Positions 110 to 45,725 of a stretch of DNA of 45,725 nucleotides are shown here, in pieces. This stretch comes from an uncultured Bacteroides sp. (GTDB lineage: Bacteria; Bacteroidota; Bacteroidia; Bacteroidales; JACABE01), in NCBI GenBank assembly GCA_964646395.1, contig CAZYEM010000002.1, positions 1 through 45,725 of the forward strand, read 5' to 3'. Below the pieces are notes generated by a model that was given only the letters and a program-made list of their open reading frames with translations, made no database searches and was not told the DNA's origin. Within the stretch, counting starts at the first letter, position 1, and every line of letters starts with the position of its first letter. Both the position numbers and the translations under genes were made by a program.

Positions 110-117
110 TATCTTTG
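110..117 (+). promoter_or_regulatory. Candidate Bacteroidota-type -7 promoter box (TAnnTTTG) for the kinase/regulator operon
   Basis: tatctttg matches TAnnTTTG and sits 27 nt upstream of ATG 144. No good -33 TTTG occurs at canonical spacing, so this is tentative. Confidence 0.3.
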
Positions 118-3070: not shown

Positions 3071-3152
3071 ATAGAACAACATTAATCAGATAAATTTTTT
3101 CTGTAAATTTTCACTTCCTTTTATACAAATTACAACTTTTTATTTTTATAAA

Positions 3153-3193
3153 ATAGGTAATTTTCCTTACTTAAAACAAGGAAATTTACCTAT
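3153..3193. promoter_or_regulatory. Near-perfect palindrome (16-bp arms, 1 mismatch, 9-nt spacer), candidate operator upstream of the receiver/giant-gene block
   Basis: ataggtaattttcctt (3153-3168) and aaggaaatttacctat (3178-3193) are reverse complements except for one position. No T-tract follows, so it is not terminator-like. It lies 53 nt upstream of the TTG start at 3246. The repeat itself is certain. The operator role is inference. Confidence 0.45.
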
Positions 3194-3215
3194 ATTAATT
3201 ACTTTCATTATACTA

Positions 3216-3223
3216 TAAATTTG
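3216..3223 (+). promoter_or_regulatory. Candidate -7 promoter box (TAnnTTTG) for the receiver gene and downstream giant genes
   Basis: taaatttg matches TAnnTTTG, lies 23 nt upstream of the TTG start at 3246 and immediately downstream of the palindrome. Confidence 0.35.
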
Positions 3224-3245: not shown

Positions 3246-3692
3246 TTGGCAATAAAAATAGTATTTTGTATTAAGGATTTTTTATCAAAAGAAACCAATA
3301 AAATTTTATTGAAAAAAATTCCTCATGTCAAGATTATTGGTGAATTTGATGATGCCAATGATTTACTGTTAAACTTAAAAAATCGGATTCCTGATATTGT
3401 AATTTACGATTTGCAATCAAACAACCTTCGTGATATCGCCGAAATAAAAAAGATTCTTACCATTAGTCCAGAATTAAAGGTTATCGTAACCTGTACATTT
3501 GAAGATACAAGAACTATTGCAGCAACATTTAATTTGGGAGCCATAGCATTTCTTACAAAAAGAGACTTATCCGTTAGCGAATTATCAAATGCCATAAATT
3601 ATGCTAATGAAAACAATCATTATGTTTCAAGATGTTGCGAATACAAAATGGTTAATATTAACAAAATGATTCAATTGAACTATAGTTTATAA
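3246..3692 (+). CDS. Stand-alone degenerate receiver (REC-like) domain protein with no output domain and a TTG start
   Basis: 148-aa ORF that aligns by eye to the REC half of the neighbouring regulator. KIVFCIKDFL corresponds to LIIVDDHPIV, so the DD pocket is replaced by IK. DIVIYDLQ corresponds to DIILMDIS, so the acceptor Asp is kept. Thr (VTCTFED) and Lys (FLTKRD) are also kept. The protein ends right after the linker with no HTH. An in-frame stop at 3240-3242 leaves TTG 3246 as the only plausible start. Confidence 0.7.
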   Translation: MAIKIVFCIKDFLSKETNKILLKKIPHVKIIGEFDDANDLLLNLKNRIPDIVIYDLQSNNLRDIAEIKKILTISPELKVIVTCTFEDTRTIAATFNLGAIAFLTKRDLSVSELSNAINYANENNHYVSRCCEYKMVNINKMIQLNYSL

Positions 3693-3728: not shown

Positions 3729-6700
3729 ATGAAAAAAGTAATCCTGTTTTTAATAGTCGTTTTATATATGACTTTTTTATCAGCTCAATCAACAATTGTT
3801 TTTCACGAAGACTTTGAATTACCTTCATTAAGTGATAGTTTGCAAAGTTCAACTGATCCGATTGGTGGAAATTCATGGGCTATATCAACTCATTTAAAAA
3901 ATTCAGGATCAAGATCAGATTCAAATCGCGTTCAGATTGGTAAAACCGTATATTTAACTACAAATTCTTTTAGTACTGTTGGTTACAGTAATGTATATCT
4001 TAAATTTGCTCAGATATGCAAATTGTTTTTTTCGGATGGAGGGCAGGTTGAGGTCTCTACAAATGGAGGAATTTCGTGGACACTTTTAACTTCATCTTAT
4101 TATCAAGGCAATGCCAGTATGGTGTTGAATAGGTTTAGTGAAAGCTCATATAATATATGGAGAGTAGGAGATACGATTGTTAACCCCACGAATGATTGGT
4201 GGAAAAACGAAACTTTTAATATTTCATTATTAGCATCTAATCAGGCTAATGTAAAAATCAGATTTAAATATACTGGAAGTAATAATCCTTTAGCAACCGG
4301 AAGATACGGCTGGTTATTAGATGATATAAAGGTAGTTGCAAGTATGTCGGAATTAGAACCTCCTGTGGTTAATTTAATTTCTTATCCCATTGATACTGCC
4401 TACTATGGAGGACCTTACAATGTTTCTGCATATGTAAAAGATGCTTCTGGAATCGATACCGTTTTTATTTCCTATAGAGTTGGTAATGGTAGTTTTACAC
4501 AATTAGGAATGATGAAGTCTCCAATAATTGATAGTTTGTACACGGCAGGAATACCATTTGTAGGTTATGGTAAAAAGATTGAATTTAAAATAACAGCAGT
4601 TGACGCATCTTCTGCACATAATTTCACTGAAAAGCCATTAAGTGAATATTATTCCTTTTTTGTTAAATATTCAACTGGAGGAAATGTAATTGTAGGAAAT
4701 GGTTCTTCACCTCAGAATTATCCTTTTAAGTCAAATTCCGATTCTACAAAAAGTGCTGCTTTATATTTATATTCCAATATAAACAGGTTTGGATTAATAA
4801 ATCAATTACAATGGTATGTTTCTACAGCTCAGGCTTCATTAAATATCCCAATTAAAGTTTACTTAAAACAAACCAATACATCAGCTTTAATAGGTGACTC
4901 CTGGGCTAGTTTAATGGATGGAGCTGTTTTAGTCTATAGCGGTACACATACATTTTCTTCAACAGGTTGGAAAACAATTACTTTAAACACACCTTATAAT
5001 TATAGTTCAGGTAATTTAATCGTATTATGTGAAACTAATTATGGAGGTTCAGGTGCTTCAATAACTCCTTCGTTTCGTTTCACGACTGCTTCATTTGGTT
5101 CGCACCAATTTTATGCATCCAGTTCCTCAATAGTCGAAGTAAATGCACAAAGACCAAATATTACTTTAGGCTTTGTAATAGTTCCTGTACTTACGCAAGA
5201 TGCAGGTATTTCTCAAATTACAAGCCCTTCCGGAAGTGTGACTGCAGGTACAGCATTTGGAGTAATTGCAAAAATAAAAAATTTCGGAAGTACTGTTTTA
5301 ACAAAAGCCAGTGTAAGTTATGCTTTGGATGGAATAATTCAGGGTACTTCTTTATGGACAGGAAGTTTATCAAAAGATTCATCTATCAGCTATACCATTG
5401 GAAATCTTAATACAACTATTGGAATACATACACTTAAGGTATGGTCTGATTTGCCTAATGACAGTATAGATCAAAATAATATAAATGATACTGCTTTTTA
5501 TACTTTTTATTCGTGTGGAGGACCTTTAAGTGGAAATTATTCTGTTGGTGGTTTTGGTGCTGATTTTCAGACTTTTGCTGATGTAAATGTAGGTCTTTCG
5601 CAATGTGGTATAAACGGACCAGTTGTTTTTAATGTAAATCCGGGTATTTATACCGAACAATTTACAATTACAGAAATTGTCGGAGCTTCTTCTAATAACA
5701 CAATTACTTTTCAATCTGTAAACAATGACAGTACATCAGTTATAATGAACCGTGCTTCTACTTCTACATCCAACTGGATAATTAAATTGAATGGTGCTGA
5801 TTATGTTAGTTTTAAGAATATAAAATTTGCACCTTCTGATTCATTATTTTCTACAGCAATCATAATTACAAATGGTGCAACCAATAATAAACTTATTGGA
5901 AACCAGTTCTTAGGGTATGCAGGTACTGCAATATCTCAAACATTAATTAGTATTGAAGGAACTGTAAATTCGAATCATAGTAATTTAATAAATGGAAATC
6001 GTTTTTTTAAAGGATCTTATGGAATTTCTGTAAAAGGTATTGCAAATATTAGGTTGAAAAATATTGTTATTAAGAAAAATATTTTAGATGAAGTAGTTTT
6101 GTATGGTATTTATACACAGTATGTTGATTCTTTACTCATAGATTCAAATACTATTTCTTCATCTGCTTTTAGTGCTAATAAATATGGCATTTATTTACAA
6201 TATGGTGATGTCTTAAATAGAATAACTAAAAATACAATATTTCTTTCGGGTGGTATAAATATGTATGGGATTTTGGCTGAAAGTTCTGTATCTTCAGATT
6301 TGTCTAAAGGATTAATTGCCAACAATTTTGTAAGTATTTTAAATGGATCTTCAATTGCTTATGGTATAAGGTTGAATACCATTACAAAATTCAGGATTTA
6401 TGCTAATTCCATTGTTTGCTTTGGTAATAGTTTTGCTAATACAAGAGCAATGAATATAACTAGTTCATGTTCGAATATTGTTATTAAAAACAATAATTTA
6501 GTAAGTAATAAATATCCATTCTTTGTAGAAGGAATCTCATCTGTCAGCTCTTCTGATTATAATAATTTTTACACTACAGGAGCAAATTTAATTAATTGGA
6601 ATTCAGCTGATTATTCTAATATAGCAAGTTATACAACTGTAAGTTTAATGGATTCAAATTCTATTTCTACTAATCCAATATTTTTCAGTAATAGCGACTT

Positions 6701-9700
6701 ACATACTTTTAATGGTTTGCTAAAAGGGAAAGGAATTATGTTGACTGATATCACTACTGATATTGATGGAAGTCCACGTTTAAATCCCCCTTGTATCGGA
6801 GCAGATGAATTTTTACCACCAGCAAATGATGCTTCCTTAACAGCAATAATTAATCCGATGAGTGCATGTGGTTTAACTACAAACGAAAGTGTTACAGTTG
6901 TTATAAAGAATATTGGTGTAAATACAATGACATCAGGTAGTTATTCTGTGGCATATAAAGTTATGGGTAGTAATCCAATAGCTCCGGAAACTATAAACAG
7001 AACGATATTGACAGGAGATACAATTCATTACACATTCAATGCCAAAGTAAATCTTTCAGTTGCAATAGCACATATCGATTCTACATATAAATTGTTAGCA
7101 TGGAGTAATTTAGCTGGTGATTTTGCAAAATCAAACGACACATCATCACTTACAGTTTTGTCATCTTATTTACCGGCAACTCCTGTTCCGGGACCAAATG
7201 TTACAATTCCTTATGCAACTACAGCATTATTAACAGCAACTTCTTCAGATTTATTGCAATGGTATAATGTAGCTGCAGGTGGCTCAATTCTGGCATTAGG
7301 ATCTCCGTTTACAACATCTGTATTACTTGATACAACTACCTTTTATGTTCATGCAAGACCTAATGAAAATAAAATTAATTATGCCCTTACAGCCGATATT
7401 TCTCATGGATCTGGGGGTGCATTTGGTTATACACCTGATTTATATAATGATGGAATAATTCCTGCATATGGTTCAGCAGGTTCAGGAATTGCAGGTTGGA
7501 CTACTACTAATTCATGGATTGAATATGAATGGAATAGTATGCTAACACTTAAAAAAGTTGTATTTTATAAAGATACCAGACCTATGACAACCTGTATTTT
7601 CCAATATTGGGATGGAACCGCATTTGTTGATTTCTATTCTTATAATAATAATAGTATAAATGATAGCGTGACATTTCCTGCTGTTACTACTACAAAAATC
7701 CGATTTAATAATGTTTCAGGTATAAGTGCAAATCCAAATTTCAGAGAAATAGAAGTATATGCAAGTGATGGTAATCCTAATTCAGGTTGTGCAAGTGCAA
7801 GAGTTCCAATAACTGTATATACAGTTGTTTCACCTCGTGAAGCAGGTATTTCAGATATTATTACACCAGAAGGTTGTGCTTTGTATCAGGTGCCTGTTAG
7901 TATTAAATTATTTAATCACGGAAGTACTCCAATGAATTCTACAAATACTTCCGTTTCATATAAGATTGATAACGGAAATTTTATAACTCCTGAAGCTTTA
8001 AATGTTTTTATCGCACCATTTGATACAGTTCAATATACATTTACAACATTAGCAAATTTCGCTGCTCCTGTATCTGATAGATTTATAAAATTAACTGCTG
8101 TTGTAAATACCACTAATGATGCATTGCATAGTAATGATACATTAGTAAAAGATTCTATACCTTCCAGATTTACACCTCCTTCACCAACATCAAATAATGT
8201 ATTTATTAATAATGGTGTAAGTACCATGCTTAGTGCCAATGCTTCAAGTGGTACTATTAATTGGTATGAACAACTAACTGGAGGAAATTTTATTGCACAG
8301 GGAACTTCATTTTTAACACCAATATTATATGTAAGTGATACTTTTTTTATAGAAGCTAAAGCTTATAACTCAGTTATTGCAACAATTGGTAACGGAACAA
8401 GTGCAAATACTTCTTCGTCTTATCCAGCACCTTATGGCAACTTATATACCGGAGCTAAACATCAGATACTAATTACCAAAGCAGAATTAAGTGCCTATGG
8501 AATTCAGGCTGGTCCAATAACCTCACTGGCTTTTGATGTTGCAAATGCAGCAAACTCACCACTTCAAAACTTTCAGTTAAAATTAGGACATACAGCGTTA
8601 AATGCATTAGCAATAGGAAGTTGGGTTCCGAATACCACGCTTGTTTATATATCTTCAGTTTATACAGATGTAATTGGTTGGAATACACATAATTTTACTA
8701 CTCCTTTTTTGTGGAATGGAATTGATAATGTTGTTGTTGAAGTTTGTTTTGACAATATTACAGTTTCTAATTCAAATGCCTCAACCAGATATACGCCAAC
8801 GACATTTAATTCTGTTGCTTTTAGAAGTTATTATGGTGTAGGTGGAATATGTAATTCTGCTGAAAGTACTGATATATATGTAAATCGTCCAAATATGAAA
8901 ATAAAAGGAACTGTGCAGGGATGTGGCAGTTCTCCAAGAGTTCCTGTAATTGTTAATGTTGCTCTTCCTCCACAAAATGATGCAGGTATAACTGCATTAG
9001 CTAATCCTGTGGGATCAACTCCTGCTGGTATTTCAACTCCAATTAAAGTTAAAATTAAAAACTATGGTCAATCAACTTTAACAAATGTAAAAGTTGCATG
9101 GAAGTTGAATAATGTATTAAAACCGATATATAATTTTTCAGGAAATATTGCCCCAGGTTCAGAATCAACAGTTACAATTGCTAATGAAACCTTTAGTGGT
9201 GGTGTATATTGTATAAAAGCATGGACATTTCTTCCAAATAACAACAGCGATAGTGTAGCTTCAAATGATACATTATCAAGTACTTGTTTCAATGCATGTA
9301 TGAGTGGAATTTATACTATTGGAAATTCTCCTGTCAGTAATTTTTCTACATTCAATTCGGCTGTTAATGCATTAAAATCGAGTGGTGTATGCAGCAATGT
9401 TTATTTTTTAGTTGATTCTGGAATTTATACTGAACAAGTAAGAATTCCTGAAATATTAGGAGCTTCTGCATCTTCAACCATTACTTTCCGTTCGGCAAGT
9501 AATGATAGCACTAAAGTTGTATTGCAGTATGCCGGAAATTCAACAAATAATTACACTTTAAAACTTGATAGTGCTGATTTTATCAGAATTGAAAAAATGA
9601 CCATAAAATCAACAGATCCTACTTATGGTTATGGGATTGAACTTGATAACGGAGCTTGCAATAATATTATCTCAAATAATAGTGTTGAAATGCCGAATAA

Positions 9701-12700
9701 CTCAAGTCCTTATAATGCTTGTATTTATGATCATAATGGCAACGATCATAATAATAAATATTTAAATAATAGAATTTTAAATGGATACATTGGGTTATAT
9801 ACATCAAGTGGAACTTCAACTAAGATAATTAATGGAACAGAAATCAGAGGGAATAAATTGTTGAATTTTGGAAATTATGGAATTAATGCCTCATATAACG
9901 ATTCTATCAAGATTACTGATAACGAGTTAATTTCAAGTGGATTAATAGGGACGGCAATCTACGCTTTATATTCCGGTTCAAATAAATATGCAGTTCAGAT
10001 TTTAAATAATAAAATAACTCTTACATCGCCATCACATCAATACGGATTATATACTTATAATAATATTGCATCGGCTTCAGCCCGGGGATTGGTTGCAAAC
10101 AATATGGTTTCACTATCAGGAGGTTCATCAACTTCAAGTAATTATGGTTTATATCCTGCCATTTCAGCATTTACTGATTATTTCTATAATACTATCAGTG
10201 TTAGCGTTCCATCAATTACAAGTGGAAGATCTTTATTTGTTGTACAAGGTAATGATCTTACATTTAAAAATAATATTTTTGTAAATAAAGGGGGTGGTTA
10301 TGCCTATTATGTTCAGACTCCGGCTGCTATTGTTCAATCTGAATACAACAATATTTATACAAGCGGGAGTTTTCTGGGTTACTGGAATACAAATCAACCT
10401 GGATTAATTGATTTGCAAACAGCAAGTACCAAAAATGCGAATTCAGTTTCTCTTAATCCAACATTCGCCTCATTAACTGATTTACATCTTAATACTACAG
10501 CTTTAAGTGCTTTAGGAACACCGGTTGCTGCTGTTACTACAGATATTGATGGAAAATCAAGAGACTTAGCACATCCATGTATCGGAGCTCATGAAATACC
10601 ATTGTTGCAACAAGATGCAGGAGTTAGCTTTATTGCTAGTCCTAATGACTTTGAAGTTGAAGGCAGTAGTTTTCCTATAAAAGTTGCAGTCAAAAACTAT
10701 GGGACAAGTCCGATTACTTCATTGACTGTTAGTTATGTTGTAAACAATGGAAATCCTGTAAGTTTTTCATACAATGGTACTATTCCATATCAGGGAGTTG
10801 ATACCGTTGTTTTCCCTTTAAATATTACTGCAATTGCCGGTAACAATACAATATGTGTTTATACAACATTAACAGGTGATAGTAATACCTTTAACAATCA
10901 GACCTGTAAGACATTTGTTAGTTCTCCAATTTTTGATGCAAAATTAGCTGGTATATTTCCAATACAGGAAGGATGTAATTTAGCAACAGATACTGTTATT
11001 ATATTAATTGCAAATAATGGAATTATGCCTATAAATGGTTCTTTAACAGCAAATTATCAGAAATTAGGTGGAAGTACTATTGTGACAGAAATAGTGAATG
11101 CAAACATAGCAGTAGGAAGCAGTTTAATTTATAAATTTAACACACTTGTAAATCTGGGAGTTACGACTTCAGATTCATTATTTAAAATTAAAACCTGGAT
11201 AACACTTGCTAATGATAATATACAAAGCAATGATGCAGATACTATTAAAGTATCCTCACTTCATACACCTTCAAATCCTGTTGTAATAAGTAATTTAAGT
11301 ATTCCTTACGCTACTGCTGCGGTTTTATCTGCATCATCACCAAATAATATTCCTTTGAAATGGTTTGATACTTCAAATGGTGGTTTATCATTATTTGATG
11401 GAAATCCATATATTACACCAATGTTATTTGCTTCAGATACATTTTATGTTGAGGCTAATTCTACCAATCCATTTAATAATATCGTTGGAACAGGACCAAA
11501 TACCGCTGGCGAACCATTCAGCACGCTTAACGGATTTACGAGAAGTGTTTCAATATATAATGCAACTGAAATCGGTGGTTATGGATTTGTAAACAAATTG
11601 AGTTGGGATGCTTTTTTAGCAGATACAGTAAATGTAATTCCTATTAAAGTTTATGTAAAACAAACTTCACAATCGTTTATGATTCCTGATACTTTGTCTG
11701 ATTTACTCAATGGAGCTACATTGGTTTATGATGGAGATAAAATGTTTAGCACTACAGGTTGGAATTCCATTGATTTTATAAATCCATATTATTATAATTC
11801 AGGTAATCTGATGGTAATTTGTGAAGCTAATTTTGGAGGAACAGGAATATATCCTTCTGCTATTTTCAGACAAACAGGCGTAGCAGGATCCAAATTCCAT
11901 CAGGTGTTTAAAGCTGATTACGCACCACCAACAGGTGTAGGAGTTATATATGCTTCCAGACCAAATATTAAGATTTCCGGATATATTGCAGGTTGTGCAA
12001 GCCAGAGAGTTGCTGTAAATATAAATGTTGGTGCTCAGGCTTCAATTGATGCAGGAATAGGTTCAATAATAAAACCATCAACTGGAACAAATTTATCTTC
12101 TCATGATACAGTAAAAGTGCTGGTTAAAAATTATGGCTATTCCCCTGTTTTTAATATTCCTGTAAAGTACAGATTAGGAAATAATACCGTAGTTTCAGAA
12201 ATTATGACTGATACTATTTTAAGTGGTGGTTCAAAACTATATACATTTGCTCAAACTGTAAATTTATATTTATATAACCAAAGTGCAACATTCAATATTA
12301 CAGCATGGACTGATTTAATTGGAGATCCAACTTTTCAAAATGATACAGCAAAGAAATCAATTATTAATAATTCTATTATATATTGTGTTTCGGCAGCTAA
12401 TAATAGTGGTAATGATGATTTAGGAAATGTTAAGTTTGCAGGAATTAATAATGGTAATTCTTTTCCGATTTATAATAATTCTTCAGCTAATCAGACATAT
12501 AATAATTACACGGCTTTAGCACCTGCACAAATACGAAGAGGAGTAAGTTATCCGATATCATTAAGTATTATTTTTTCAGACGGTGGTTTTTCGGGAAAAG
12601 CAAATGCATATATAGACTATAATCAAAACGGTGTTTGGGATTTGCCCGGGGAATTGGCATTTTCAGCACAATACAACGGAAATGGAAATACAACAGTAAC

Positions 12701-14648: not shown

Positions 14649-14719
14649 TAGATTAACTGTTTATTTTGAATCTAAAAGTATATTATCTTACAAATTCAAA
14701 TTTGTATAAAAATCTAAGT

Positions 14720-26068: not shown

Positions 26069-26117
26069 TATTAGAAATTGAAATCAAATAATAAATTTAA
26101 ATAATAAACACACCATT

Positions 26118-35100: not shown

Positions 35101-38100
35101 GCCAAACCAATTCAATAAATGGAAACGTTATTGTATTTAAAGGGATGTCATCCAATATAACCATTGCTAACAATCGTCTCGAAATGCCTTTAAATGCAGG
35201 TGGAACTTCTGTTGCCATTCTTACTTTCAATTCAGATTTTGGAAATGACAATAAAATACTGAACAATTATATTTTGAATGCATACAATGGAATTGTTATG
35301 CAAGGCTCAACAATCTTAACAGCAAAACGAAATGTTATTGAAGGAAATACATTCAAAAGCTTCAATTATTATGGTATTCAAGCTGATTATCAAGACTCAT
35401 TAATAATTAGAAAAAACAGTTTTGAAACAAATTCTACTTTAGCTTCTAAAAGAGCTGTTTATTTAACTTCTCCAACTAATAGTCTGTTTATCGATAAAAA
35501 TAAAATAAAAATGTTGGTTCCAGGAGTGAATTTAAATGGTATTTATATTATTAATTCAAATGGAACAACCAACAGCAGACAGTTTATCACTAACAATTTT
35601 ATCAGCATAAATGGAAGTTCAGGCTATGGTATTTATTTAAATTCGCCTAATTATATTACAATTGCTAATAATTCATTAAATATTGATTTCACAACAAATA
35701 GCCCATCTACTTCTGCGTTATATGCTTCAGGTGGAGGTAATAATTTGCTTTATAATAACAGTATTGTTGGGATTGATAGTACTTATCTGATTTATGTTGC
35801 TACCAATTCTATATTCAATAACAGTAACAATAATAATTTTTACAAAACAGGAGGACCTAATTTTGCTTTTTGGGGTACAAATGCTGCAAATCTTAATGCA
35901 CTTAAATTAATCAGTACAAAGGATAGCAATTCAGTAGCTGTAAATCCTTCCTATATTTCTGTATCAGATTTACATTTATATTCTCCCGTATTAAATAATA
36001 TTGGAAAAGTAATAACAGAAGTTCCCGATGATATCGATGGACAACTAAGAAGTCAAAGTTTTCCTGATATAGGTGCAGATGAATATACTCCAGTGCCTAT
36101 CGATTTGGCTGCAATAGAACTGATTGAACCCATTTCCACATATTCTCAGTCGGGTGTTAATATTCCAGTTAAAATGAGTATAAGAAATTATGGTTCCGAT
36201 AGTATTGCTAATTTTTATGTAGTTTGTAAATTTGGCAATGCTACAGCTGTTTCTCAGTTATATTCTGCTTATCTGCATGTAGGTCAAATAGATACTATTA
36301 CGTTTGTAAATCAACCTGTTGTTCCAGGTCCATTTGAAATCAAAGTTTATATTTCTTTGTCAACAGATGGAAATCACAGTAACGATACTGTTAAATCTAT
36401 GTATTTTGGAATTCCAATCAAGAATATTCCTTATGCTGAAAACTTTGACAATACAACAGAAGAATGGTTTGTTTCCGAACCAGCCTCTATATGGAACCGT
36501 GGAGTTCCCAATGCTAATGTAATTAATATAGCACATAGTACGCCTAACGTTTGGGCAACAAATTTAAATGGAAATTATATTAATAATAATACCAGCATAC
36601 TTTATACTCCGATATTCAACAATTCAGGTTACAATGCTGATACATTGAAATTCTGGCATTGGATAGATGCAGAAAATAATAAGGATGGCGGTTTTATTGA
36701 ATATAAGAATGTTTCAGGAAATTGGGAGTATTTAGGTGGTATGAATAGTCAGGATACTAATGCAACCAATTGGTATAACTCCATATTATTAAATAAATGG
36801 ACTGGTAATAGTGCTGGATGGCAGGAATCTAAGTATATAATCGGTAATTTATCCAACATTGGCAATACAGTTCAATTCAGATTTGTATTTAAATCAGATG
36901 CTACAAACAACAATTACAACGGATGGGCTATTGATGATTTTGAAATTACAATTCAACCAATTGCAAATGATGCTGGTGTTATCGAAATAATAAATCCAGT
37001 TTCATCATTATTAGGCGATACTGTTTATCCAAAAGTTAAGATTAAAAACTTCGGATTAAATACGCTTACTTCTATACCTGTAAAATATTCGGTTAACGGA
37101 CAAGTAATTGCTTCAGAGGTGTTTAATACAATGTTAGCTCCTGGTTCAACTGCTGATTATACTTTCAGTCAATATTTTAAAGTAACCACACAACCTTTAT
37201 ATACTATCAAAGCATATACCGTTTTGGCTGGAGATTATTATAATGTTGCTGATACAACAATTAAAGTTGTTAATGTATCTCCTGCTTTAAAAGATGTTGG
37301 TATTCTGAGTATTATAAGTCCGGCAGATACTGTATATGCTGGAAGTATTGTAACCGTTATTGTTAAAATTAAAAACTATGGAAGTTCAGCAGTTTCTTCA
37401 ATTCCTGTTTCTTACAAAAGAGGAAGTCAGCCTGCTCAGAATGATACATGGACAGGTGCTGCATTAAATTCAGGTGATACTGCAACATTTTCATTCCCTG
37501 TTACATTTACTGTAAGCATGGGTAGTTCATTTGCCTTTAGCGCATATACAAGTCTGGTAAGTGATGCATTCGATTTGAATAATAAAATTACCAAATCTAT
37601 TATTATATCATCATTACCAGGGAGCTCAGGTAATATTACATCTGCAACTATTGGTACTTATGGTGGCGACACTATTTGTTTTCCTACTGGAAGCTCTTCT
37701 CCTATAATTGCAACTTATACTGTTCCAGTTATTGCAAATGCAACAAATTATATCTGGAATTATACAGGAAGCAATGTAACTTACAATAATTCTACTTCTT
37801 CTAATTCTGTAGATTTAACTTTCAATACTAATTCAACAGATGGTATTTTAACTGTTTATGGTAAAAATACACTTGGTAATGGAAACTCTTCACCTGCTTT
37901 TGCAATTGATGTTATTTTGAATTGTACAATTGGTATTGAAGATGAATTTATAGATAAGTTCTGGCTTGGTCAGAATATGCCAAATCCTGCTTCAGGTATT
38001 ACAAACATTGAATACAATTTACCGGAAGCTGGAGAAGTTAAGTTTGATATTATTACTGTTTATGGTCAGAATATTTACTCAATTTCAAAGAATACAGATG

Positions 38101-38213: not shown

Positions 38214-38341
38214 TATTAAAAACTATGCTTAATCATTTTAAAATAAACAACTATATATATTCATCCAATTAAATTAGTGTATTTTACTATTGTAGTTGCA
38301 CTTACAACAATTAAATCTTTTATTAATTAATATTTATTATC

Positions 38342-41300
38342 ATGAAAAAATCATTGATTTTCTTAAGTTTAGTACTCGTATTTGCAACGAGTACATGGGC
38401 TCAGCTTACAGGGCAAAAATACATCCCTGGTTCAGGTGGTCTCAACGATTATTCAAGTATAGCTTTAGCAATTGCTGATCTGAATTTGCAAGGTGTTGGT
38501 ACTGGTGGCGTTACTTTCAATGTAGCTTCTGCTTATACCGAAACCATTACAGCAACCTTATCAGTTACAGCAACCGGTACTTTAGCTAATCCTATTATTT
38601 TCAGGAAAGATGGATTGGGAGTTAATCCTTTGGTTACATCTTATTCAACAGGAATTTCAACCCCTGACTCAACAGTACAGGATGGTATCTGGAATTTTAT
38701 TGGATCAGATTATGTAACTATAAATGGTATAGATCTTTATGATCCAAATACTTCTAATCCTTCAACAATGGAATATGGTTATGGTTTTTTTAAAGCCAGT
38801 TCAAGCGATGGTTGTCAGTACAATACAATACAAAATTGCATTGTAACACTTAATAAAATTAACAATGCTTTAGGTGGCACTATTGCTTTAGATGGTTCAA
38901 AAGCCATTAATTTTGTAAATGCATTGGTTACAGCCCAAAAAACGGTGGTTGTTCCTACTTCTGAAAATGGTACAAATTCTTACAATAAATTATACAGCAA
39001 TACATTGCAAAACTGTAATATTGGTATTGCAATAATAGGTTTTGTTGATGTTACTTCTTCTGTCTTATGCGATTTTGGAAATGATATCGGTGGAAGTTCA
39101 GCTGCAACCGGAAATAATATCATAAACTTTGGAGGAGCTCCAGGTGCTGCAGGTACTACTAATCCTGCTGCGGGTATAAGAACATTAGGGCAATATGATA
39201 TCAATGTTTCTTATAATACTATTAATAACAATAATGGCTCAGGTGTGAACCATGGATCTACAATCAGAGGTATTTATCTGAATACTGCCATAAACGCAAG
39301 TTCAACTATTACTTACAATACAATTACCATCAAGAGTTTTATGAAAGTAACTCCCAGTCAGGTTTCTGTAATCGAGAATGTTTCCGGAGCAAATGGAATT
39401 TCAAATACAATTAATATCAGCCAGAATACCATTACCAATTGTACGAATGATTCATGTACACAAGCTTTCTGGTATGGGATTTACAATACTGCCAGTTGTG
39501 CAAATCTGAAAATTATGGGTAATACATTCAGCAACAATACTACAAAAGCTACTACTGGTAATTCAAATTTAATTCTTAGTAGCGGAGCTGTCACCTTAAC
39601 GGATAGTATTTGCAATAATAATGTAAGTTTTAGCCATATTAATACCACAGCTTGTTCAGCAACGATTTCCAGTATTTATAATTCAGGAACAACAAATACT
39701 TGTACGGTTGTTATTAACAATAATAATTTCTTAAATTATAATTTTAATACGCCAGGTACTGGTTCATTATATTTTATACATAATGCTGGATTAAATAATT
39801 CTCCATCAAATGTTTACATTTCAAACAATACCTGGAGCAATTTAACATTGAATTATTCAGGTACTATTTATTTATGTAATCAAGGTGCTAGTATCAAAGG
39901 GCCTGAATTTAATTTTACCAATAATTATATTGTAGGAAACTTAATCCGCACAGGAACTGTAGGCACTTTTTATTGTCTTTCTAATTCTTCATCTAATAAT
40001 ATTGCAACTGTAATAACTATTGCTGATAATGACTTTTCTAACATTACAGCAAGCGGAACAGGATCGGGAACATTCTACGGAATCAATGAAGCATCAACAA
40101 CACCAGCTCCATATAGTTTGAAAAAGGTATATAATAATACTGTTTCTAATATTACAAACACATTGGGTACAGGAACATTCACAGGAATACTTGTTAATAC
40201 AATGGGACCTGGTATTACTTCTACTCCATCAATAATATATGATAATACAGTAAGTGGTATTAGCACAGTTGGTACTATTAATGGTTTTTCCCTTGGTTCT
40301 ACATCTTCATTAGCATCCAGGTATCAGGCATATAATAATACAATCAACACTTTAACTTCTTCTGGAGCTTCTTCTACTGTAAATGGTGTTAATTTAGCCA
40401 GTAGCGGTGCAGGTGCTGATTTTTTTAAACATAATATTTATAATATTAAAGCTACAGGTGCTACTGCCTTTGCTAATGGAATTTTAATTCCTTCAGGTGG
40501 TATAAATACAAATGTTTACAATAATTTTATTTCTGATATTAAAACTCCAAATAATTCAAATACTACTATTACAGATGGTGTAAGAGGAATCAGTATCACT
40601 TCAATATCTGCTAACACAAATATTAATTTGTATTATAATACGATTTATCTGGATGCAACTTCTGTGGGGACTAATTTTTCTTCATCAGCTGTTTTTCATA
40701 CTTATAACGCAACAGCAACTTCAGCTGTTTTAAATATGCAGAACAATATTCTGGTAAATAATTCAATACCCAAGGGAACCGGTATAGCATCTGCATTCAG
40801 AAGAAGTGCCGCAACCAGTATTGTAAACATTTCTCAAAATTGCAACTTTAATTGTTTTTATGCAGGAACTCCTGATACCAAGCATCTTATTTATTATGAC
40901 GGAACCAATTCTGATCAAAGCATTACAGCTTACAGAGCACGGGTTTTGGACAGAGATCTTCAGTCATTTAGAGAATTACCTCCATTTTCTAATATAGCTA
41001 CACTTCCTTATGATCTTCATTTAACATCTGCTGCTGCTACACAATGTGAAAGCGGAGGACAACAAATTTCTGGCATTACAACTGATTTTGATGATGAAGG
41101 TCGTTTTGGTTCAGTTATGCCTCCTTATTTGGGTGTTGGAACATCAACTGATATTGGTGCTGACGAAAGCGATTTACTTATGGTAACCGATATTATTGCT
41201 CCAGCTATTGTTTATACTCCGGTTATAAATACAGCTTTTCCTACAAGTACAATAATTGCAAATATTACAGATCCAAGTGGTGTACCATCTGTTATGGGTG

Positions 41301-44300
41301 ATCCTGGTTTACCTGTATTAATATGGAAAATCAATGTTCCGGGTAGCTGGAACTCTGCTACAGCTACTCCTCTTGGAAACAATCAATATTCATTTACATT
41401 TGGTGGTGGTGCAATTAACGGTGACAGTATATTATATTATGTTGTTGCTCAGGATGGAGCTGCTAATGTAGGAACTTATCCTTCTTTGGGTTCTGCAGGT
41501 TTTGGTTTAAATCCACCAAGTGCAGCTACTGCTCCAACTAATTTATATAAGTATAAAAAACTCGTAGCTATGTCAGGAGTATATACTATTGATAACTCAA
41601 TGGTTACCGGTGGAACAAATTTTCAAACATTTACCGATGCTGTTATAGCTTTAAATACTTCGGGTTTAACAGGTCCGGTTACATTTAATGTAGCTGCCAA
41701 TCAAAGTTGGGTAAATACTTGTTCAGGTAATCCAAGCATTGCTTTAAAAATAACAAATACAACTACTACAGCAACCAATACTGTTACGTTCCAAAAAAAT
41801 GGTGTTGGTCCAAATCCAGTAATAAATATTAATGGAACTGCTGGTTCTGATTATGGTATTTATCTTGAAGATGCTAAATACTTTACTTTTGATGGTATCG
41901 ATGTGGTTGATGCAGGTACATCTGCCTCTAACTGGATAGAATATGGTATATATTTGAAAGGCACAGTGTTTGGTTGTCAGTATAATACCATTAAAAATGC
42001 AGAGGTTAATATGGAAAGAAGTATAGCTTCTTATGGTATCTATTCTTCAAGTGGTGCTACTCCTTTAGTAGCTGCTAACAGTTATAATAAATTTTATAAT
42101 AATACCATTAAAGAATGTCGTTTTGGATATTATTTGTTAGGTGTAAATAACTTTAGAGATATTTTAAATGAAATCGGAACTATTTCATCAGGTATCAGTT
42201 TAATTCAAGGAATTGGTTCTTCTCTAGTAGCTTCAACACCTAATGCTATTTATGGCAATTATCAGGATGGGTTGAAAGTATTCAATACAACTATAGATTC
42301 TGTAACTGCTCTTAATTCAATTGTATCGGGTATGGAAATTACCAATAGTTCCAATCTTAGTATTTACAGCAATACGCTTAAAAATATAAGTAAAGTCGGA
42401 ACAACCGGTAACAGCGATGTTATGTTAATGAATATTACAAATTCTTCTGCTGGTACTCATAATATATACACGAATACAATGTTTGATTGTAGTATTCCGG
42501 CAACTGCATTAACAGGTAATCTGAATGCAATGAGAATTTATGGTGGATCAGACTGCAACTGGAATGTTTATGGAAATACTGCCTACAATTTATACAATTA
42601 TGTAGGTGTAGTAACTGGCGTTTATCATAATGTAGGATCAGGTTCAACTACAACTAATATCTATAATAATAAATTCTACAATTTTACATCTTATGCAGCA
42701 TCAAGTTATATTCCTGTTATTTTTGGTGGACAAACAACAAATACTTATAATGTATATAACAACTATGTTTATGATATTAAAAATGCAGCATCTAATATTG
42801 CATCTCAACCTGCTGTTCAGGGTATTTCTGTTGCCGGTGGTATCTGGAATATCTATAACAATACAGTAAACCTGGATTATGTAAGCAGCCATGTTGCTAA
42901 TACTTCTGCAGCATTGTATGTAAGTACTTCTGCAGCAATTGTTGATATCAGAAATAATATCTTTGTTAATAAATGTGATATGACCATAGGAGCAAGTGCT
43001 GTTGCTTTCTGGTACACAGGTAAACTTCCTTATACAAACATCGCATCTGCATCTGGCAATAATCTTTATTATAGTGGTATCCCGAGTTCAAAAAATTTGA
43101 TTTTCTGTGATTCTTTAGCTCCTACTGCTACTACTAATTTTATTCAGACCTTAGGTGATTACAAAACAATCTCAGGAAAAGAAGCCAATTCAGTAACTGA
43201 AGATCCTCCGTTTATAAGTAATGTTGCTCCTTATAATTTACACATGCAAACATCAACTCCAACAATTACCGAAGGAAGAGGTCAAGCTATTGCTATTGTG
43301 ACAACAGATTATGATGGTGATATTCGTAATGCTACTACCCCTGATATAGGAGCTGATGAATTTACAGGTACTCCGGTTGTTGAATGTACTGGTATTCCTG
43401 CAATGGCTAATATAAGTGGAGCAGCTTCTGTTTGTATAAATACAGGAACAGCACTTACTTTAACTCCTTTAAACACAGATCTTGGTATAACCCATCAATG
43501 GGCATATTCCAATGCTCCTGGTGGTCCTTATACTAATTTAGGTAAACTAAATTCTCAGTTAACAGGGAATATTTCTGTAACCACTTATTATATTGATACT
43601 ATTCGTTGTACAAACAGTGGCTTATATATTGTAACAGCAGAGAAAATGATTACTATAAATGCTTATCCTGTATCTTCAGCAGCTGTTGCATTATCACCGA
43701 TTTGTGCTAATGAAACTCTTAATCTATTAGGTACAACTGATATTGGTACATCTTTTAACTGGACAGGACCAAATGGTTATACATCAATAAGTCAAAATCC
43801 AAGTATTGCTTCAGCAACAACAGCTGCAACTGGTATATATTCTTTTACTTCTACTTCTAATGGCTGTATTTCTCCTGTTAGTACTGTTGCAGTTATTGTT
43901 AATCAAACGCCAAGTGCCATTACAGTTACACCTTCTTCTTCATCATTATGTGCAGGAAGTATTCAGGCATTAGCTGCTAGTGGTGGTATTGTTACTGGTG
44001 CTACTATTTTAAATGAAAACTTTAATGATAGTTTAAGTGCAAACTGGACGAAAATTAATAACTCTGTGGGAGGAACTCCTGCAAATTCAGCATGGACAAA
44101 CAGAGCTGATGGTTATGTATATGCTACTTTTGGAACATTTCACAGCAATGATAATTCACGATTTTTTGTTTCCAATAGTTTTGATCAAGGTAGTGGAACA
44201 GGAGTTAATACCCAAACAATTCTAATGTCACCATCTTTCAGTACACTTAATTTCACTTCAGCAACTATAAATTTCTATCAATATTATGAAAGATATGCTA

Positions 44301-45601
44301 ATAATAAAGATACCATCAGAATTGAAGCCTCAGTAGATGGAACAACCTGGACTACATTGCAGTTTTATGCATATATATCAGGAAATCAAGGATCTACTTC
44401 TGTATTTAAAAATTCAGTAATTAATTTAACTGCTCCTTTCCTAAATCAGGCTAATGTTTATATCCGTTTTAGATACAATACTCTTAGTAATGGATATTGC
44501 TGGGCAATTGATAATGTAAGCATAGGTGGTTCTAAATCTCTTTTACCAACATGGCTGCCTATAACTGGTTTATTTAGTGATGCTGCCGCAACGTTACCTT
44601 ATGTTGCAGGAACAACAGCTTCAACTGTTTATGCAAAACCTGATGTAGGATTAACTAATTATAATGCTACAGCAACTACTGCTAATGACAATTGTTCAAT
44701 TACAAGTAATACTGCAGTTGTAGATGTAAATACGCCTTCTGTTGGAGGAACTGCTATTGCTGCAGCTACTTCAGTTGTTTCTGGAACAGGAACTTCTATT
44801 GATTTAAGCGGCTATACCGGGTCTATTCAATGGCAATCTTCTCTGAACGGAACAACCTGGACAAATATTTCAGGTCAAACATCATCAACTTTATTAACAG
44901 GAAACCTGAATGCAACAACGCATTTTCAAGCATTGGTTACAAACGGATCATGTACACCGGCTATATCATCTGAAGCTATTGTTACAATTATTACTACAAA
45001 AACGTTGAATCTTAATTTGATTTTAGAAGGTTTGTATAATAATAACAACACTGGTATATTAATGAATGCAGCAGCTGATGATTTAGGTCCTCATTGGGGT
45101 TCAACAATTGCTGATCAGGTTACAGTTGAATTACATAATGGAACTTCTCCTTATGCTTTAGTTCAATCATTTACTAACAAAATACTGAATACAAACGGAA
45201 CATTATCTATAAATGATATTCCTGCTAATTTGGGTGGAAATTATTATATTGTTATTAAACACAGAAATAGTATTGTTACTTGGAGTAATTTACCAATATC
45301 ATTTGCAAACTCAGTAATAAGTTATAATTTCACAACTTCTGTTAACTCAGCTTATGGAAGTAATTTAAAACCTATTGGCATTGGATTGTTTGCTGTTTAT
45401 TTTGGTGATGTTAATCAGGATGAGGTAATCGATTTATCTGATCTGGTTGATATGGATACCGACTTAACCAATGGCACTGTCGCTTATGTTGTTTACGACT
45501 TAAATGGTGATGGTGTTGTTGATCTTTCTGACTTAGTTGCTATTGATGAAAACCTAACCAATGGTGTAGTTGGCATAAATCCTTTAAATAAAAAAAAATA
45601 A
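38342..45601 (+). CDS. Giant secreted beta-helix protein with a C-terminal dockerin-like module and no T9SS sorting domain (2419 aa)
   Basis: Signal peptide MKKSLIFLSLVLVFATSTWA|Q. Two beta-helix modules end in DIGADES and DIGADEF. Ig-like modules carry the motif NWTGPNGYTS...ATGIYSF. MAM-like domain ILNENFNDS...CWAIDNVSIGG. The C-terminus is GDVNQDEVIDLSDL...YDLNGDGVVDLSDL. Confidence 0.95.
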   Translation: MKKSLIFLSLVLVFATSTWAQLTGQKYIPGSGGLNDYSSIALAIADLNLQGVGTGGVTFNVASAYTETITATLSVTATGTLANPIIFRKDGLGVNPLVTSYSTGISTPDSTVQDGIWNFIGSDYVTINGIDLYDPNTSNPSTMEYGYGFFKASSSDGCQYNTIQNCIVTLNKINNALGGTIALDGSKAINFVNALVTAQKTVVVPTSENGTNSYNKLYSNTLQNCNIGIAIIGFVDVTSSVLCDFGNDIGGSSAATGNNIINFGGAPGAAGTTNPAAGIRTLGQYDINVSYNTINNNNGSGVNHGSTIRGIYLNTAINASSTITYNTITIKSFMKVTPSQVSVIENVSGANGISNTINISQNTITNCTNDSCTQAFWYGIYNTASCANLKIMGNTFSNNTTKATTGNSNLILSSGAVTLTDSICNNNVSFSHINTTACSATISSIYNSGTTNTCTVVINNNNFLNYNFNTPGTGSLYFIHNAGLNNSPSNVYISNNTWSNLTLNYSGTIYLCNQGASIKGPEFNFTNNYIVGNLIRTGTVGTFYCLSNSSSNNIATVITIADNDFSNITASGTGSGTFYGINEASTTPAPYSLKKVYNNTVSNITNTLGTGTFTGILVNTMGPGITSTPSIIYDNTVSGISTVGTINGFSLGSTSSLASRYQAYNNTINTLTSSGASSTVNGVNLASSGAGADFFKHNIYNIKATGATAFANGILIPSGGINTNVYNNFISDIKTPNNSNTTITDGVRGISITSISANTNINLYYNTIYLDATSVGTNFSSSAVFHTYNATATSAVLNMQNNILVNNSIPKGTGIASAFRRSAATSIVNISQNCNFNCFYAGTPDTKHLIYYDGTNSDQSITAYRARVLDRDLQSFRELPPFSNIATLPYDLHLTSAAATQCESGGQQISGITTDFDDEGRFGSVMPPYLGVGTSTDIGADESDLLMVTDIIAPAIVYTPVINTAFPTSTIIANITDPSGVPSVMGDPGLPVLIWKINVPGSWNSATATPLGNNQYSFTFGGGAINGDSILYYVVAQDGAANVGTYPSLGSAGFGLNPPSAATAPTNLYKYKKLVAMSGVYTIDNSMVTGGTNFQTFTDAVIALNTSGLTGPVTFNVAANQSWVNTCSGNPSIALKITNTTTTATNTVTFQKNGVGPNPVININGTAGSDYGIYLEDAKYFTFDGIDVVDAGTSASNWIEYGIYLKGTVFGCQYNTIKNAEVNMERSIASYGIYSSSGATPLVAANSYNKFYNNTIKECRFGYYLLGVNNFRDILNEIGTISSGISLIQGIGSSLVASTPNAIYGNYQDGLKVFNTTIDSVTALNSIVSGMEITNSSNLSIYSNTLKNISKVGTTGNSDVMLMNITNSSAGTHNIYTNTMFDCSIPATALTGNLNAMRIYGGSDCNWNVYGNTAYNLYNYVGVVTGVYHNVGSGSTTTNIYNNKFYNFTSYAASSYIPVIFGGQTTNTYNVYNNYVYDIKNAASNIASQPAVQGISVAGGIWNIYNNTVNLDYVSSHVANTSAALYVSTSAAIVDIRNNIFVNKCDMTIGASAVAFWYTGKLPYTNIASASGNNLYYSGIPSSKNLIFCDSLAPTATTNFIQTLGDYKTISGKEANSVTEDPPFISNVAPYNLHMQTSTPTITEGRGQAIAIVTTDYDGDIRNATTPDIGADEFTGTPVVECTGIPAMANISGAASVCINTGTALTLTPLNTDLGITHQWAYSNAPGGPYTNLGKLNSQLTGNISVTTYYIDTIRCTNSGLYIVTAEKMITINAYPVSSAAVALSPICANETLNLLGTTDIGTSFNWTGPNGYTSISQNPSIASATTAATGIYSFTSTSNGCISPVSTVAVIVNQTPSAITVTPSSSSLCAGSIQALAASGGIVTGATILNENFNDSLSANWTKINNSVGGTPANSAWTNRADGYVYATFGTFHSNDNSRFFVSNSFDQGSGTGVNTQTILMSPSFSTLNFTSATINFYQYYERYANNKDTIRIEASVDGTTWTTLQFYAYISGNQGSTSVFKNSVINLTAPFLNQANVYIRFRYNTLSNGYCWAIDNVSIGGSKSLLPTWLPITGLFSDAAATLPYVAGTTASTVYAKPDVGLTNYNATATTANDNCSITSNTAVVDVNTPSVGGTAIAAATSVVSGTGTSIDLSGYTGSIQWQSSLNGTTWTNISGQTSSTLLTGNLNATTHFQALVTNGSCTPAISSEAIVTIITTKTLNLNLILEGLYNNNNTGILMNAAADDLGPHWGSTIADQVTVELHNGTSPYALVQSFTNKILNTNGTLSINDIPANLGGNYYIVIKHRNSIVTWSNLPISFANSVISYNFTTSVNSAYGSNLKPIGIGLFAVYFGDVNQDEVIDLSDLVDMDTDLTNGTVAYVVYDLNGDGVVDLSDLVAIDENLTNGVVGINPLNKKK
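38402..41167 (+). repeat. Beta-helix super-module 4A (about twice the usual length)
   Basis: Opens QLTGQKYIPGSGGLNDYSSIALAIADLNLQGVGTGGVTFNVASAYTE...NPIIFRK directly after the signal peptide. A long N/T/S-rich turn region follows. Closes TDFDDEGRFG...STDIGADES. Confidence 0.6.
41576..43363 (+). repeat. Beta-helix super-module 4B
   Basis: Opens GVYTIDNSMVTGGTNFQTFTDAVIALNTSGLTGPVTFNVAANQSW...NTVTFQK. Closes TDYDGDIRNATTPDIGADEF. Confidence 0.65.
44006..44530 (+). other. MAM-like domain in giant 4
   Basis: ILNENFNDSLSANW...INFYQYYERY...VYIRFRYNT...NGYCWAIDNVSIGG. Confidence 0.5.
45404..45565 (+). other. Dockerin-type duplicated EF-hand-like Ca-binding segment at the C-terminus of giant 4
   Basis: Two loops fit the D-x-N-x-D-x-x-x-D-x-x-D pattern: DVNQDEVIDLSDL and DLNGDGVVDLSDL. 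A short helix follows each (VDMDTDL and VAIDENL). They are 22 residues apart at the very end of the protein. Confidence 0.6.
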
Positions 45602-45610
45602 ATTAAGAAT

Positions 45611-45650
45611 ATTGACACAGAATGCAGTTAAAGCATTCTGTGTCAATTTT
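45611..45650 (+). terminator. Strong rho-independent terminator closing the giant-gene block
   Basis: Perfect 15-bp stem attgacacagaatgc (45611-45625) / gcattctgtgtcaat (45633-45647) with 7-nt loop agttaaa, followed by T-tract 45647-45650. It starts 10 nt after the stop of the fourth giant gene. Confidence 0.85.
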
Positions 45651-45725
45651 AAAATGATAATTTAAATTTAAATTAAAATTCAATCTTATGAGAAATCAAT
45701 TACAGAAAATCATTGGATTAATGAT

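Follow-up and report, generated by a model that had tools for sequence, protein, structure and literature searches.

The stretch of DNA under study, contig CAZYEM010000002.1 of assembly GCA_964646395.1, comes from an uncultured low-GC freshwater Bacteroidales and was analysed over its full 45,725 bp, to which we refer as the window; it is dominated by four consecutive giant genes, here called G1 to G4. To our minds, the block as a whole is best explained, with a confidence only a little above even, as encoding four giant surface proteins of non-catalytic appearance, the last of which (G4) would dock elsewhere, under control of a NarL-type response regulator. Known parts in this are the adhesin-type giant proteins anchored through the T9SS (type IX secretion system) and the NarL-type two-component cassette; what is new is the system that the C-terminal tail of G4 belongs to, an X-module-dockerin (XDoc) dyad. 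With these assignments, some 42 kb annotated as ‘hypothetical protein’ turn into defined modules together with a testable operator and promoter.

That the fourth gene swaps the sorting tail of its neighbours for a dockerin-like module had been proposed in a preliminary description of this DNA, and we can now resolve the module as an XDoc dyad. No T9SS tail is found in G4 by Pfam, NCBIfam or a six-frame scan of the window with a custom hidden Markov model (HMM) of the T9SS C-terminal domain (CTD), the latter matching G1, G2 and G3 only. In a model of the last 205 residues predicted from 80 homologs (Table), an immunoglobulin (Ig)-like X-module packs against the dockerin as it does in type-II XDoc structures (predicted TM-score, pTM, 0.91), and the top eight Foldseek matches in the Protein Data Bank (PDB) are all type-II XDoc chains (4u3s_B, 4wi0_B, 3kcp_A, 2b59_B, 4fl4, 5g5d_B) with E-values of 1e-7 to 4e-6, covering about 200 columns at TM-scores of 0.63-0.67 normalised to the full 156-residue XDoc chains. 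The two Ca2+-binding loops lie 30 residues apart and go together with helices at model residues 151-163 and 181-192, which is the two-repeat build of a dockerin, and the tail aligns to the Ruminococcus flavefaciens dockerin 5lxv_B (E 7e-4). Among the orthologs of G4 (P0011, P0012 and P0013 with 77%, 67% and 62% identity, respectively), the dockerin loops are nearly invariant in proteins whose bodies are 62-77% identical.

A full HMMER scan of 1.84 billion representative sequences with the 205-aa module finds the XDoc tail in 6,226 clusters at E<=1e-3; a threshold of E<=1e-30 leaves 617. The best 150 of these proteins range from 232 to 4,535 aa, and in 135 of them the last Ca2+ loop sits 20-39 residues from the protein end; the dockerin helices are nearly invariant among XDoc proteins whose bodies differ widely. 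Species-representative genomes hold at least 223 XDoc loci, often with several copies per genome, and the best 80 of these loci are all from Bacteroidota (Bacteroidales, Lentimicrobiaceae, Chitinophagales, Flavobacteriales) or Ignavibacteria metagenome-assembled genomes (MAGs). Within the loci sampled, 112 open reading frames (ORFs) carry the XDoc module and 38 a type-A T9SS tail, with an overlap of zero, and XDoc genes stand in tandem with other XDoc, cohesin and T9SS-tailed genes. When 60 XDoc proteins were scanned, Pfam recognised Dockerin_1 in 23 (E<=1e-3) and Cohesin in six, alongside fn3, BACON, PKD, GEVED, peptidase C1/M14, endonuclease I, lectin and beta-helix domains; the XDoc protein P0182 passes the Dockerin_1 cutoff (22.9 bits) at 24.2 bits.

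Potential partners were sought with a lineage-specific cohesin HMM, built from seven domains of XDoc-family proteins and iterated to 40 domains. Cohesins and XDoc tails can meet in one protein, as in P0266, where three Pfam Cohesin stretches (88.9 bits; four by the custom HMM) are combined with an XDoc, and cohesins also occur beside T9SS tails: P0023 and P0047 have G4-like bodies that end in a cohesin and a T9SS tail (over the first 411 aa, P0023 and G4 share 55% identity), and P0122, a 3,986-aa GEVED/beta-helix giant, bears two cohesins together with such a tail. These genes cluster. On a Logan contig (SRR6032601, L100 327-11394), the gene after P0023 is of cohesin-PKD-CTD build, and the one after that has at least six tandem cohesins; P0047 (JGI 3300075153) is flanked by an 827-aa cohesin protein and a cohesin/PKD/CTD protein; and in JACAAZ01 (L039) a gene with cohesin and T9SS tail precedes one with three cohesins and an XDoc. 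Five Bacteroidales/Prolixibacteraceae MAGs (L102-L106) share a conserved pair in which a large cohesin-CTD protein is followed by a T9SS-tailed scaffoldin of about 1119 aa with four cohesins, three in L106 (e.g. L102 4613-7969, L105 3519-6872). To judge by domain content, the gene set of these related MAGs is the layout of a hierarchical cohesin-dockerin system with T9SS-tailed anchoring scaffoldins. In MAG CAIZXK01, the nearest relative of our source organism, a cohesin-PKD-XDoc protein has a dockerin that is nearly the same as that of G4; a scan with a single cohesin picked up no further cohesins in this MAG or in JAPLDQ01.

Non-cellulosomal cohesins and dockerins are known in general (as noted in PMC10066038, citing Peer et al. 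2009), and the literature on dockerins, cohesins or scaffoldins in connection with the T9SS, Bacteroidota or Ignavibacteria yielded incidental mentions only and no account of a system of this kind, so a T9SS-linked cohesin-dockerin display system is apparently undescribed. We therefore put forward, tentatively and as a possibility that falls short of being probable, that G4 is cargo of a cellulosome-like display system in Bacteroidota and Ignavibacteria, in which T9SS-anchored scaffoldins with one to six cohesins would receive thousands of XDoc-ended proteins by a new route across the outer membrane. A new route would be needed because XDoc proteins are without a T9SS tail; they might pass the SprA translocon piggy-back on a cohesin-CTD carrier or, alternatively, have their XDoc recognised directly. 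In lakes, sediments and guts, Bacteroidota rank among the main degraders of particulate organic matter, and much of what they secrete or expose at the surface as protein is T9SS cargo. If the proposal holds, the XDoc tail may recruit thousands of tail-less proteins to T9SS-anchored scaffoldins as a non-covalent, modular second layer of display, cohesin-dockerin assembly would extend to diderm bacteria, and new orthogonal cohesin-dockerin pairs would become available for surface-display engineering. It also raises the testable question of how XDoc proteins pass the outer membrane.

The closest known system to the G4 tail is type-II cohesin/XDoc anchoring, i.e. the CipA XDoc with SdbA/OlpB in Acetivibrio thermocellus and the ScaA XDoc with ScaB in A. 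cellulolyticus. As in cellulosomal scaffoldins, a large non-catalytic protein has at its very end, as modelled, an Ig-like X-module packed on a two-loop dockerin, and relatives encode multi-cohesin scaffoldins as well as adaptor-like cohesin-XDoc proteins. Unlike in cellulosomes, however, the host is diderm and XDoc proteins must cross an outer membrane, the anchoring scaffoldins of the relatives end in a T9SS type-A tail rather than in S-layer homology (SLH) or sortase motifs, and the XDoc cargo consists of giant beta-helix proteins, proteases, nucleases and lectins instead of a cellulase set. The G4 dockerin also differs from cellulosomal ones in falling under the Pfam cutoff, with cohesin binding predicted here from sequence and model. 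G4 was considered as a cellulosome component and dismissed, there being no carbohydrate-active enzyme (CAZyme) family in G4 and a mixed set of mostly non-CAZyme domains in its XDoc relatives.

In comparison, G1 to G3 are ordinary giant T9SS type-A cargo. All three carry the sorting domain at the extreme C-terminus, above the PF18962 cutoff of 27 bits at 41, 32.9 and 34.2 bits, respectively, much as first described; TIGR04183 (cutoff 23 bits) recognises that of G1 only and is the sole NCBIfam match in the giants. The N-termini of all four giants, judged by eye and hydropathy, are signal peptides with a hydrophobic stretch followed by A/G-Q, thus placing Gln at +1 according to the Q-rule pattern of Bacteroidetes (PMC10653852). 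From established T9SS biology, G1 to G3 would be expected to cross the outer membrane via the T9SS, lose their tails and become covalently attached to the surface. G1 and G2 are 55% identical end to end, while G3 shares 37-41% with both and has its modules duplicated or reshuffled; paralogs this diverged are too different to be assembly artefacts, and the cluster of four giants is real. Orthologs of G1 (73% in L012, 66% in L013) and G2 (73% in L012, 64% in L014) exist in relatives, and the N-terminal 1100 aa of G1, with a MAM/InhA-like head, have at least 38 matches in a word-filtered search; the MAM/Reelin-B-like head of G1 to G3 is also present in InhA-like T9SS proteins. In a collection of 15 billion proteins, G1 to G3 are each singletons at 90% identity and none is characterised, and G1 has no sequence match to any solved structure in the PDB. 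At E<=1e-5, G4 has more than 1,200 protein matches, mostly annotated as T9SS sorting-domain or hypothetical proteins and several as pairs on one contig. With more than 1,200 giant beta-helix T9SS proteins and an XDoc tail in more than 6,000 clusters, rarity is not supported.

Precedents for very large substrates of Sec and T9SS from which adhesive structures are built outside the cell are the grappling hook protein GhpA of Aureispira and SprB of Flavobacterium johnsoniae (bioRxiv 10.1101/2024.01.29.577165). Like these, G1 to G3 are giants with a T9SS tail, and G4 shares Ig_7-type repeats with GhpA; unlike GhpA, the giants have bodies of beta-helix/CARDB supermodules rather than tens of Ig-like repeats. 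The match of G4 to GhpA (9flp, E 1.5e-61) is restricted to aa ~1680-1900, i.e. about 220 residues of Ig_7-type repeats, and homology to GhpA over the whole protein was rejected for this reason. SprB uses a type-B tail together with SprF. Every ORF of at least 100 aa in the window is accounted for and none is an anchor gene of the PorP/PorE or SprF kind; with no PorP/PorE-like (GhpB/C) gene in the window, the block does not classify with filaments of the GhpA/SprB type. From generic T9SS type-A cargo (TIGR04183/PF18962), G1 to G3 stand apart by their extreme size of 3.6-4.0 thousand residues and by being three paralogs in tandem. G1 and G2 resemble CshA-type fibrillar adhesins in having GEVED (68 and 58.5 bits, respectively), a domain defined from CshA as conserved partner of adhesive domains (PMC10952558), yet no NR2 domain was detected, anchoring is by T9SS rather than LPXTG and the stalk is different. 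Taken as an assembly, the four giants probably form an adhesive or polymer-binding coat.

As to the layout of the block, ORF calling reproduces what had been described before: four plus-strand genes of 3639, 3782, 4031 and 2419 aa fill 91% of the window, which is the entire contig and uniformly low in GC (24-35%), and are separated by spacers of 71, 49 and 128 nt. For G2 we took the start at ATG 14720, which opens the signal peptide; TTG at 14666 would give 3800 aa. Terminator scans agree with the earlier view that none of the three inter-giant spacers contains a terminator-like site, and the exact Bacteroidota -7 consensus TAnnTTTG is likewise absent from all three. This includes the spacer before G4, which is conserved in three genomes. 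A scan for sigma-70 promoters was uninformative (99 sites versus 98 expected). Short spacers free of terminators and -7 boxes are compatible with a single 42-kb transcript. Most likely, transcription starts at the -7 box promoter around 3216, upstream of the stand-alone receiver gene, and it may continue through this gene and the four giants as far as the hairpin at 45611. The terminator that the preliminary description placed after G4 stands in part: a perfect 15-bp stem (45611-45625/45633-45647) begins 10 nt past the G4 stop codon, but a canonical T-tract is lacking, and the plus-strand scan gave the hairpin no canonical-terminator score because its 3' tail is merely TTTT followed by A's.

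Directly upstream of the block lie the TPR kinase, LuxR-type regulator, degenerate receiver and large palindrome that had been noted before, and Pfam domains, residue comparison and an inverted-repeat scan bear out all four. The kinase combines a signal/transmembrane segment, a periplasmic TPR region some 370 aa long and a further transmembrane segment (aa 414-432) with HisKA and HATPase domains; its stop codon is overlapped by 8 nt by the start of the regulator gene, whose product has the receiver (REC) domain and GerE helix-turn-helix of a NarL/FixJ two-component system. The stand-alone receiver, compared with the REC of the regulator, retains the phospho-acceptor Asp, the Thr and the Lys, and has the first Asp of the acidic pocket replaced by Lys. 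Its gene is the first one downstream of the operator, and this suggests that the receiver-only protein could have a feedback or phosphate-sink role. Kinase and regulator have JAPLDQ01 orthologs with 76% and 81% identity, respectively; the receiver is 92% identical in CAIZXK01 (L012) and 58% in JAPLDQ01 (L002).

The palindrome (3149-3197) has two 20-nt arms that are 90% complementary and holds an operator candidate of four 7-bp half-sites, which alignment shows to be kept in CAIZXK01 (L012) and JAPLDQ01 (L002). The half-sites pair as A-B' ... B-A' in the window and as A-A' ... B-B' in JAPLDQ01 (L002 12753-12791), at equal spacing. Next to it, the -7 box TAAATTTG is invariant across the three aligned MAGs and the sole exact TAnnTTTG in the spacers from the regulator gene to G4. 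An exact TAGGTAA-N2-TTACCTA site, of which there are two copies in 1.13 Mb of sampled sequence, lies upstream of the JAPLDQ01 G1 ortholog (L013 9770), 22 nt before its -7 box and unlinked to the regulator gene; a relaxed motif occurs five times in the 1.13 Mb versus 0.36 expected, four of the five within these promoters. The operator copy at the unlinked G1 ortholog supports regulator control, and with a conserved 7-2-7-type operator by the -7 box, control of the block by the adjacent NarL-type regulator, as first suggested, is plausible and well backed by comparison. Mechanistically, the operator would overlap the promoter and be bound by the regulator acting under the TPR kinase. This is reminiscent of NarL/FixJ systems that bind 7-2-7 inverted repeats, in that a REC-GerE regulator overlaps its cognate kinase gene and heptamers spaced 1-2 bp adjoin the promoter; it is unlike NarL in that the half-site WAGGWAA bears no relation to the NarL consensus, a periplasmic TPR serves as sensor domain, an extra receiver-only gene follows the operator and operator binding is predicted.

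The sensor had also been seen as dedicated to the giants, and this part we cannot uphold. In JAPLDQ01, the orthologs of G1 and G4 are on a different contig from kinase and regulator, and the same kinase-regulator-operator-receiver cassette precedes other, smaller T9SS cargo genes (1029 and 1325 aa), so the cassette is not dedicated to the giant block. Two remoter Bacteroidales MAGs have one-component regulators with TPR and GerE domains about 250 nt upstream of G3-like giants (L017 8090-9739, L018 223-1809); the WAGGWAA 7-2-7 site is absent from these regulator-giant spacers, though they share conserved sequence. On the P0047 contig (JGI 3300075153), a response regulator of the sigma-54 type is located upstream of the cohesin-CTD giant cluster.

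Several observations weigh against our preferred explanation. The G4 tail scores 15.4 bits, below the Dockerin_1 gathering cutoff of Pfam (22.9 bits); no cohesin partner is encoded in the 45.7-kb contig, the part of the source genome that was scanned; and XDoc proteins, being without a T9SS tail, have no known way across the outer membrane. As for regulation, TAnnTTTG occurs in the window at chance frequency (35 observed versus 35 expected), and the assignment of the -7 box as well as the lack of internal promoters are drawn from consensus matching. Finally, the beta-helix fold is common to many glycanases and lyases, hence the models would still allow a glycan-active function, and in JAPLDQ010000043.1 (L013 1-9593) the orthologs of G1 and G4 stand directly behind a SusC/SusD pair plus two T9SS proteins bearing PNGase-F C-terminal domains, a context more suggestive of nutrient capture than of adhesion alone.

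The last two points bring up the alternative that the giants are primarily polymer-processing, as glycan-binding proteins or beta-helix glycanases/lyases of a nutrient capture system similar to a polysaccharide utilisation locus (PUL), and not structural adhesins, which we consider unlikely. Ten copies of a supermodule, two each in G1, G2 and G4 and four in G3, combine a CARDB-like Ig domain with a right-handed beta-helix that, in an alignment of the copies, closes with a DLH...DIDGxxR...P-IGADE cap. The beta-helix similarity of G4 to its neighbours, a claim of the preliminary description, is real but weak (G4-G3 E 1.5e-12). The best fold matches of the modelled supermodule, besides the CARDB domain 3idu, are enzymes (GH87, GH136, GH28, PL6, AlgG), the giants give NosD/Beta_helix matches as well as weak, below-cutoff CBM_2 and BNR_assoc_N-like regions, other XDoc proteins bear peptidase, nuclease and lectin domains, and the L013 arrangement behind SusC/SusD resembles a PUL. 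However, similarity to the enzymes is at fold level only (TM-score 0.27-0.47, 9-14% identity) and the same fold is found in adhesins such as PfbA; the window is without a SusC/SusD pair; and GEVED and Ig_7 domains are what one typically finds in fibrillar adhesins. It was correctly observed at the outset that the giants show no enzyme signature: none of the four contains an HExxH motif or matches, at E<=0.01, a catalytic family of Pfam or NCBIfam, nor is any glycoside hydrolase (GH), polysaccharide lyase (PL) or carbohydrate esterase (CE) family significant.

The preliminary description itself had envisaged one dedicated super-structure in which G4, a dockable mega-protein, is docked on G1 to G3 as anchored mega-scaffolds, with a sensor devoted to the block. 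That the giants are adjacent, on one strand and separated by short spacers speaks for this, as does the position of the G4 ortholog, which immediately follows a T9SS-tailed giant in three of three contexts (G3 here; in JAPLDQ01 the G1 ortholog; on a Logan contig a G2-like gene) and makes a functional link between G4 and such giants plausible; moreover, with cohesins beside the T9SS tails of G4-like or GEVED giants in other MAGs (P0023, P0047, P0122), the architecture would be feasible. Yet neither Pfam nor the 7-domain or iterated 40-domain HMM, which does find cohesins in those other giants, detects a cohesin in G1 to G4 or in the six-frame translation of the window (best domain E-value in the giants 0.15; nothing at E<=0.1 in the six-frame scan), and docking of G4 on G1 to G3 is not supported for this reason. 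In addition, the domain right before the tails of G1 to G3 is PKD/CARDB-like, not a cohesin, the gene upstream of G4 varies by genome, and the cassette precedes other cargo in JAPLDQ01, all of which renders this model decidedly improbable. Without a cohesin in the window and with a cohesin-PKD-XDoc protein in CAIZXK01, the partner is most likely encoded elsewhere in the genome, and G4 would, again most likely, dock in a Ca2+-dependent manner onto a T9SS-anchored cohesin scaffoldin from there and be displayed in this way. Least credible of all is the idea that the G4 tail binds no cohesin and serves as an alternative C-terminal signal for export or retention (by the T9SS or another outer-membrane route) or as a Ca2+-stabilised end domain: the C-terminal place of the module in 135 of the best 150 proteins, its mutual exclusion with T9SS tails in 150 ORFs, its restriction to phyla that have the T9SS and the excess of XDoc over cohesin proteins in the sampled loci (112 versus 10) would fit, but cohesins are encoded in the same clusters and even the same proteins as XDoc, the tail fold matches XDoc dyads solved with cohesins rather than T9SS tails, and conservation of the dockerin helices far exceeds that of the bodies, which a protein partner in common would lead one to expect.

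Table. Features of the window, with coordinates and strand (aa, residues of the encoded protein; AF2, AlphaFold2; pLDDT, predicted local distance difference test)
Feature	Position	Strand	Evidence or remark
-7 box of kinase gene, TATCTTTG, Bacteroidota type	110-117	+	consensus match
Sensor histidine kinase	144..2216	+	Pfam: HATPase_c 1e-24, TPR_12 3.5e-18, HisKA 9e-4
NarL/FixJ-type response regulator, REC + GerE/LuxR helix-turn-helix	2209..2868	+	Response_reg 3.9e-27, GerE 5.6e-18
Operator candidate, four 7-bp half-sites TAGGTAA-tt-TTCCTTA-cttaaaac-AAGGAAA-t-TTACCTA	3154..3192	.	inverted-repeat scan
-7 box TAAATTTG	3216..3223	+	Bacteroidota-type; 23 nt upstream of REC start
Stand-alone receiver (REC-only)	3246..3692	+	Response_reg 32.4 bits, cutoff 30.2
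G1, 3639 aa: signal peptide, MAM-like head, CARDB/Ig, 2 beta-helix modules, DUF7402, Ig_7, GEVED, T9SS type-A tail	3729..14648	+	
G1 T9SS type-A sorting domain, aa 3564-3639	14418..14645	+	PF18962 41 bits; TIGR04183 29.7 bits
G2, 3782 aa: architecture of G1 plus PKD_6 before tail; T9SS tail aa 3706-3780	14720..26068	+	PF18962 32.9 bits
G3, 4031 aa: reshuffled modules, 4 beta-helix modules; T9SS tail aa 3955-4029	26118..38213	+	PF18962 34.2 bits (C-terminus scanned alone)
Representative supermodule, G3 aa 2773-3336: CARDB-like Ig + right-handed beta-helix	34434..36125	+	AF2 model, pLDDT 82, pTM 0.78
Nine other supermodule copies	5160-6851, 8946-10637, 16169-17860, 20102-21793, 27591-29282, 29223-30914, 32799-34490, 39353-41209, 41546-43402	+	
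Conserved 128-nt spacer before G4	38214..38341	+	84% mean column identity in three genomes, with a different T9SS-tailed giant upstream in each
G4, 2419 aa: signal peptide (Gln +1), two long beta-helix modules, Ig_7-type repeats, MAM/Reelin-B-like domain, XDoc tail	38342..45601	+	
XDoc dyad, G4 aa 2215-2419	44984..45598	+	AF2 model (80 homologs), pLDDT 95.3, pTM 0.91
Two Ca2+-binding loops and intervening segment: DVNQDEVIDLSD (aa 2356-2367), DLNGDGVVDLSD (aa 2386-2397)	45407..45532	+	sequence and 5lxv_B alignment
Hairpin with 7-nt loop, terminator candidate	45611..45647	.	followed by TTTTAAAA on the + strand

Scans of the window for tandem DNA repeats and Rfam families found none. In the JAPLDQ01 contig JAPLDQ010000046.1, a 361-aa ORF (L014 11917-12999) lies between the orthologs of G2 and G3; its match is confined to the CARDB/PKD part of G2 that directly precedes the tail (42% identity), and it looks like a remnant or mini-paralog. 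At the far end of the window, 41 nt past the hairpin behind G4, a further plus-strand ORF (MRNQLQKIIGLM...) opens at 45688 and leaves the contig end at 45725. At the opposite end, upstream of the kinase gene, a terminator-like hairpin (CTGCnTTGGAAACnAGGnnGC) followed by eight T's occupies positions 50-79, and a similar one is found on a Logan contig downstream of the G4 ortholog (L099 12453-12482; 30 nt, 87% identity, E 1e-4). A common contig-end context with L099 was rejected, a similarity over a 30-nt hairpin being too short, and hairpins of the CTGCnTTGGAAACnAGGnnGC type may be a recurrent terminator element of this lineage.

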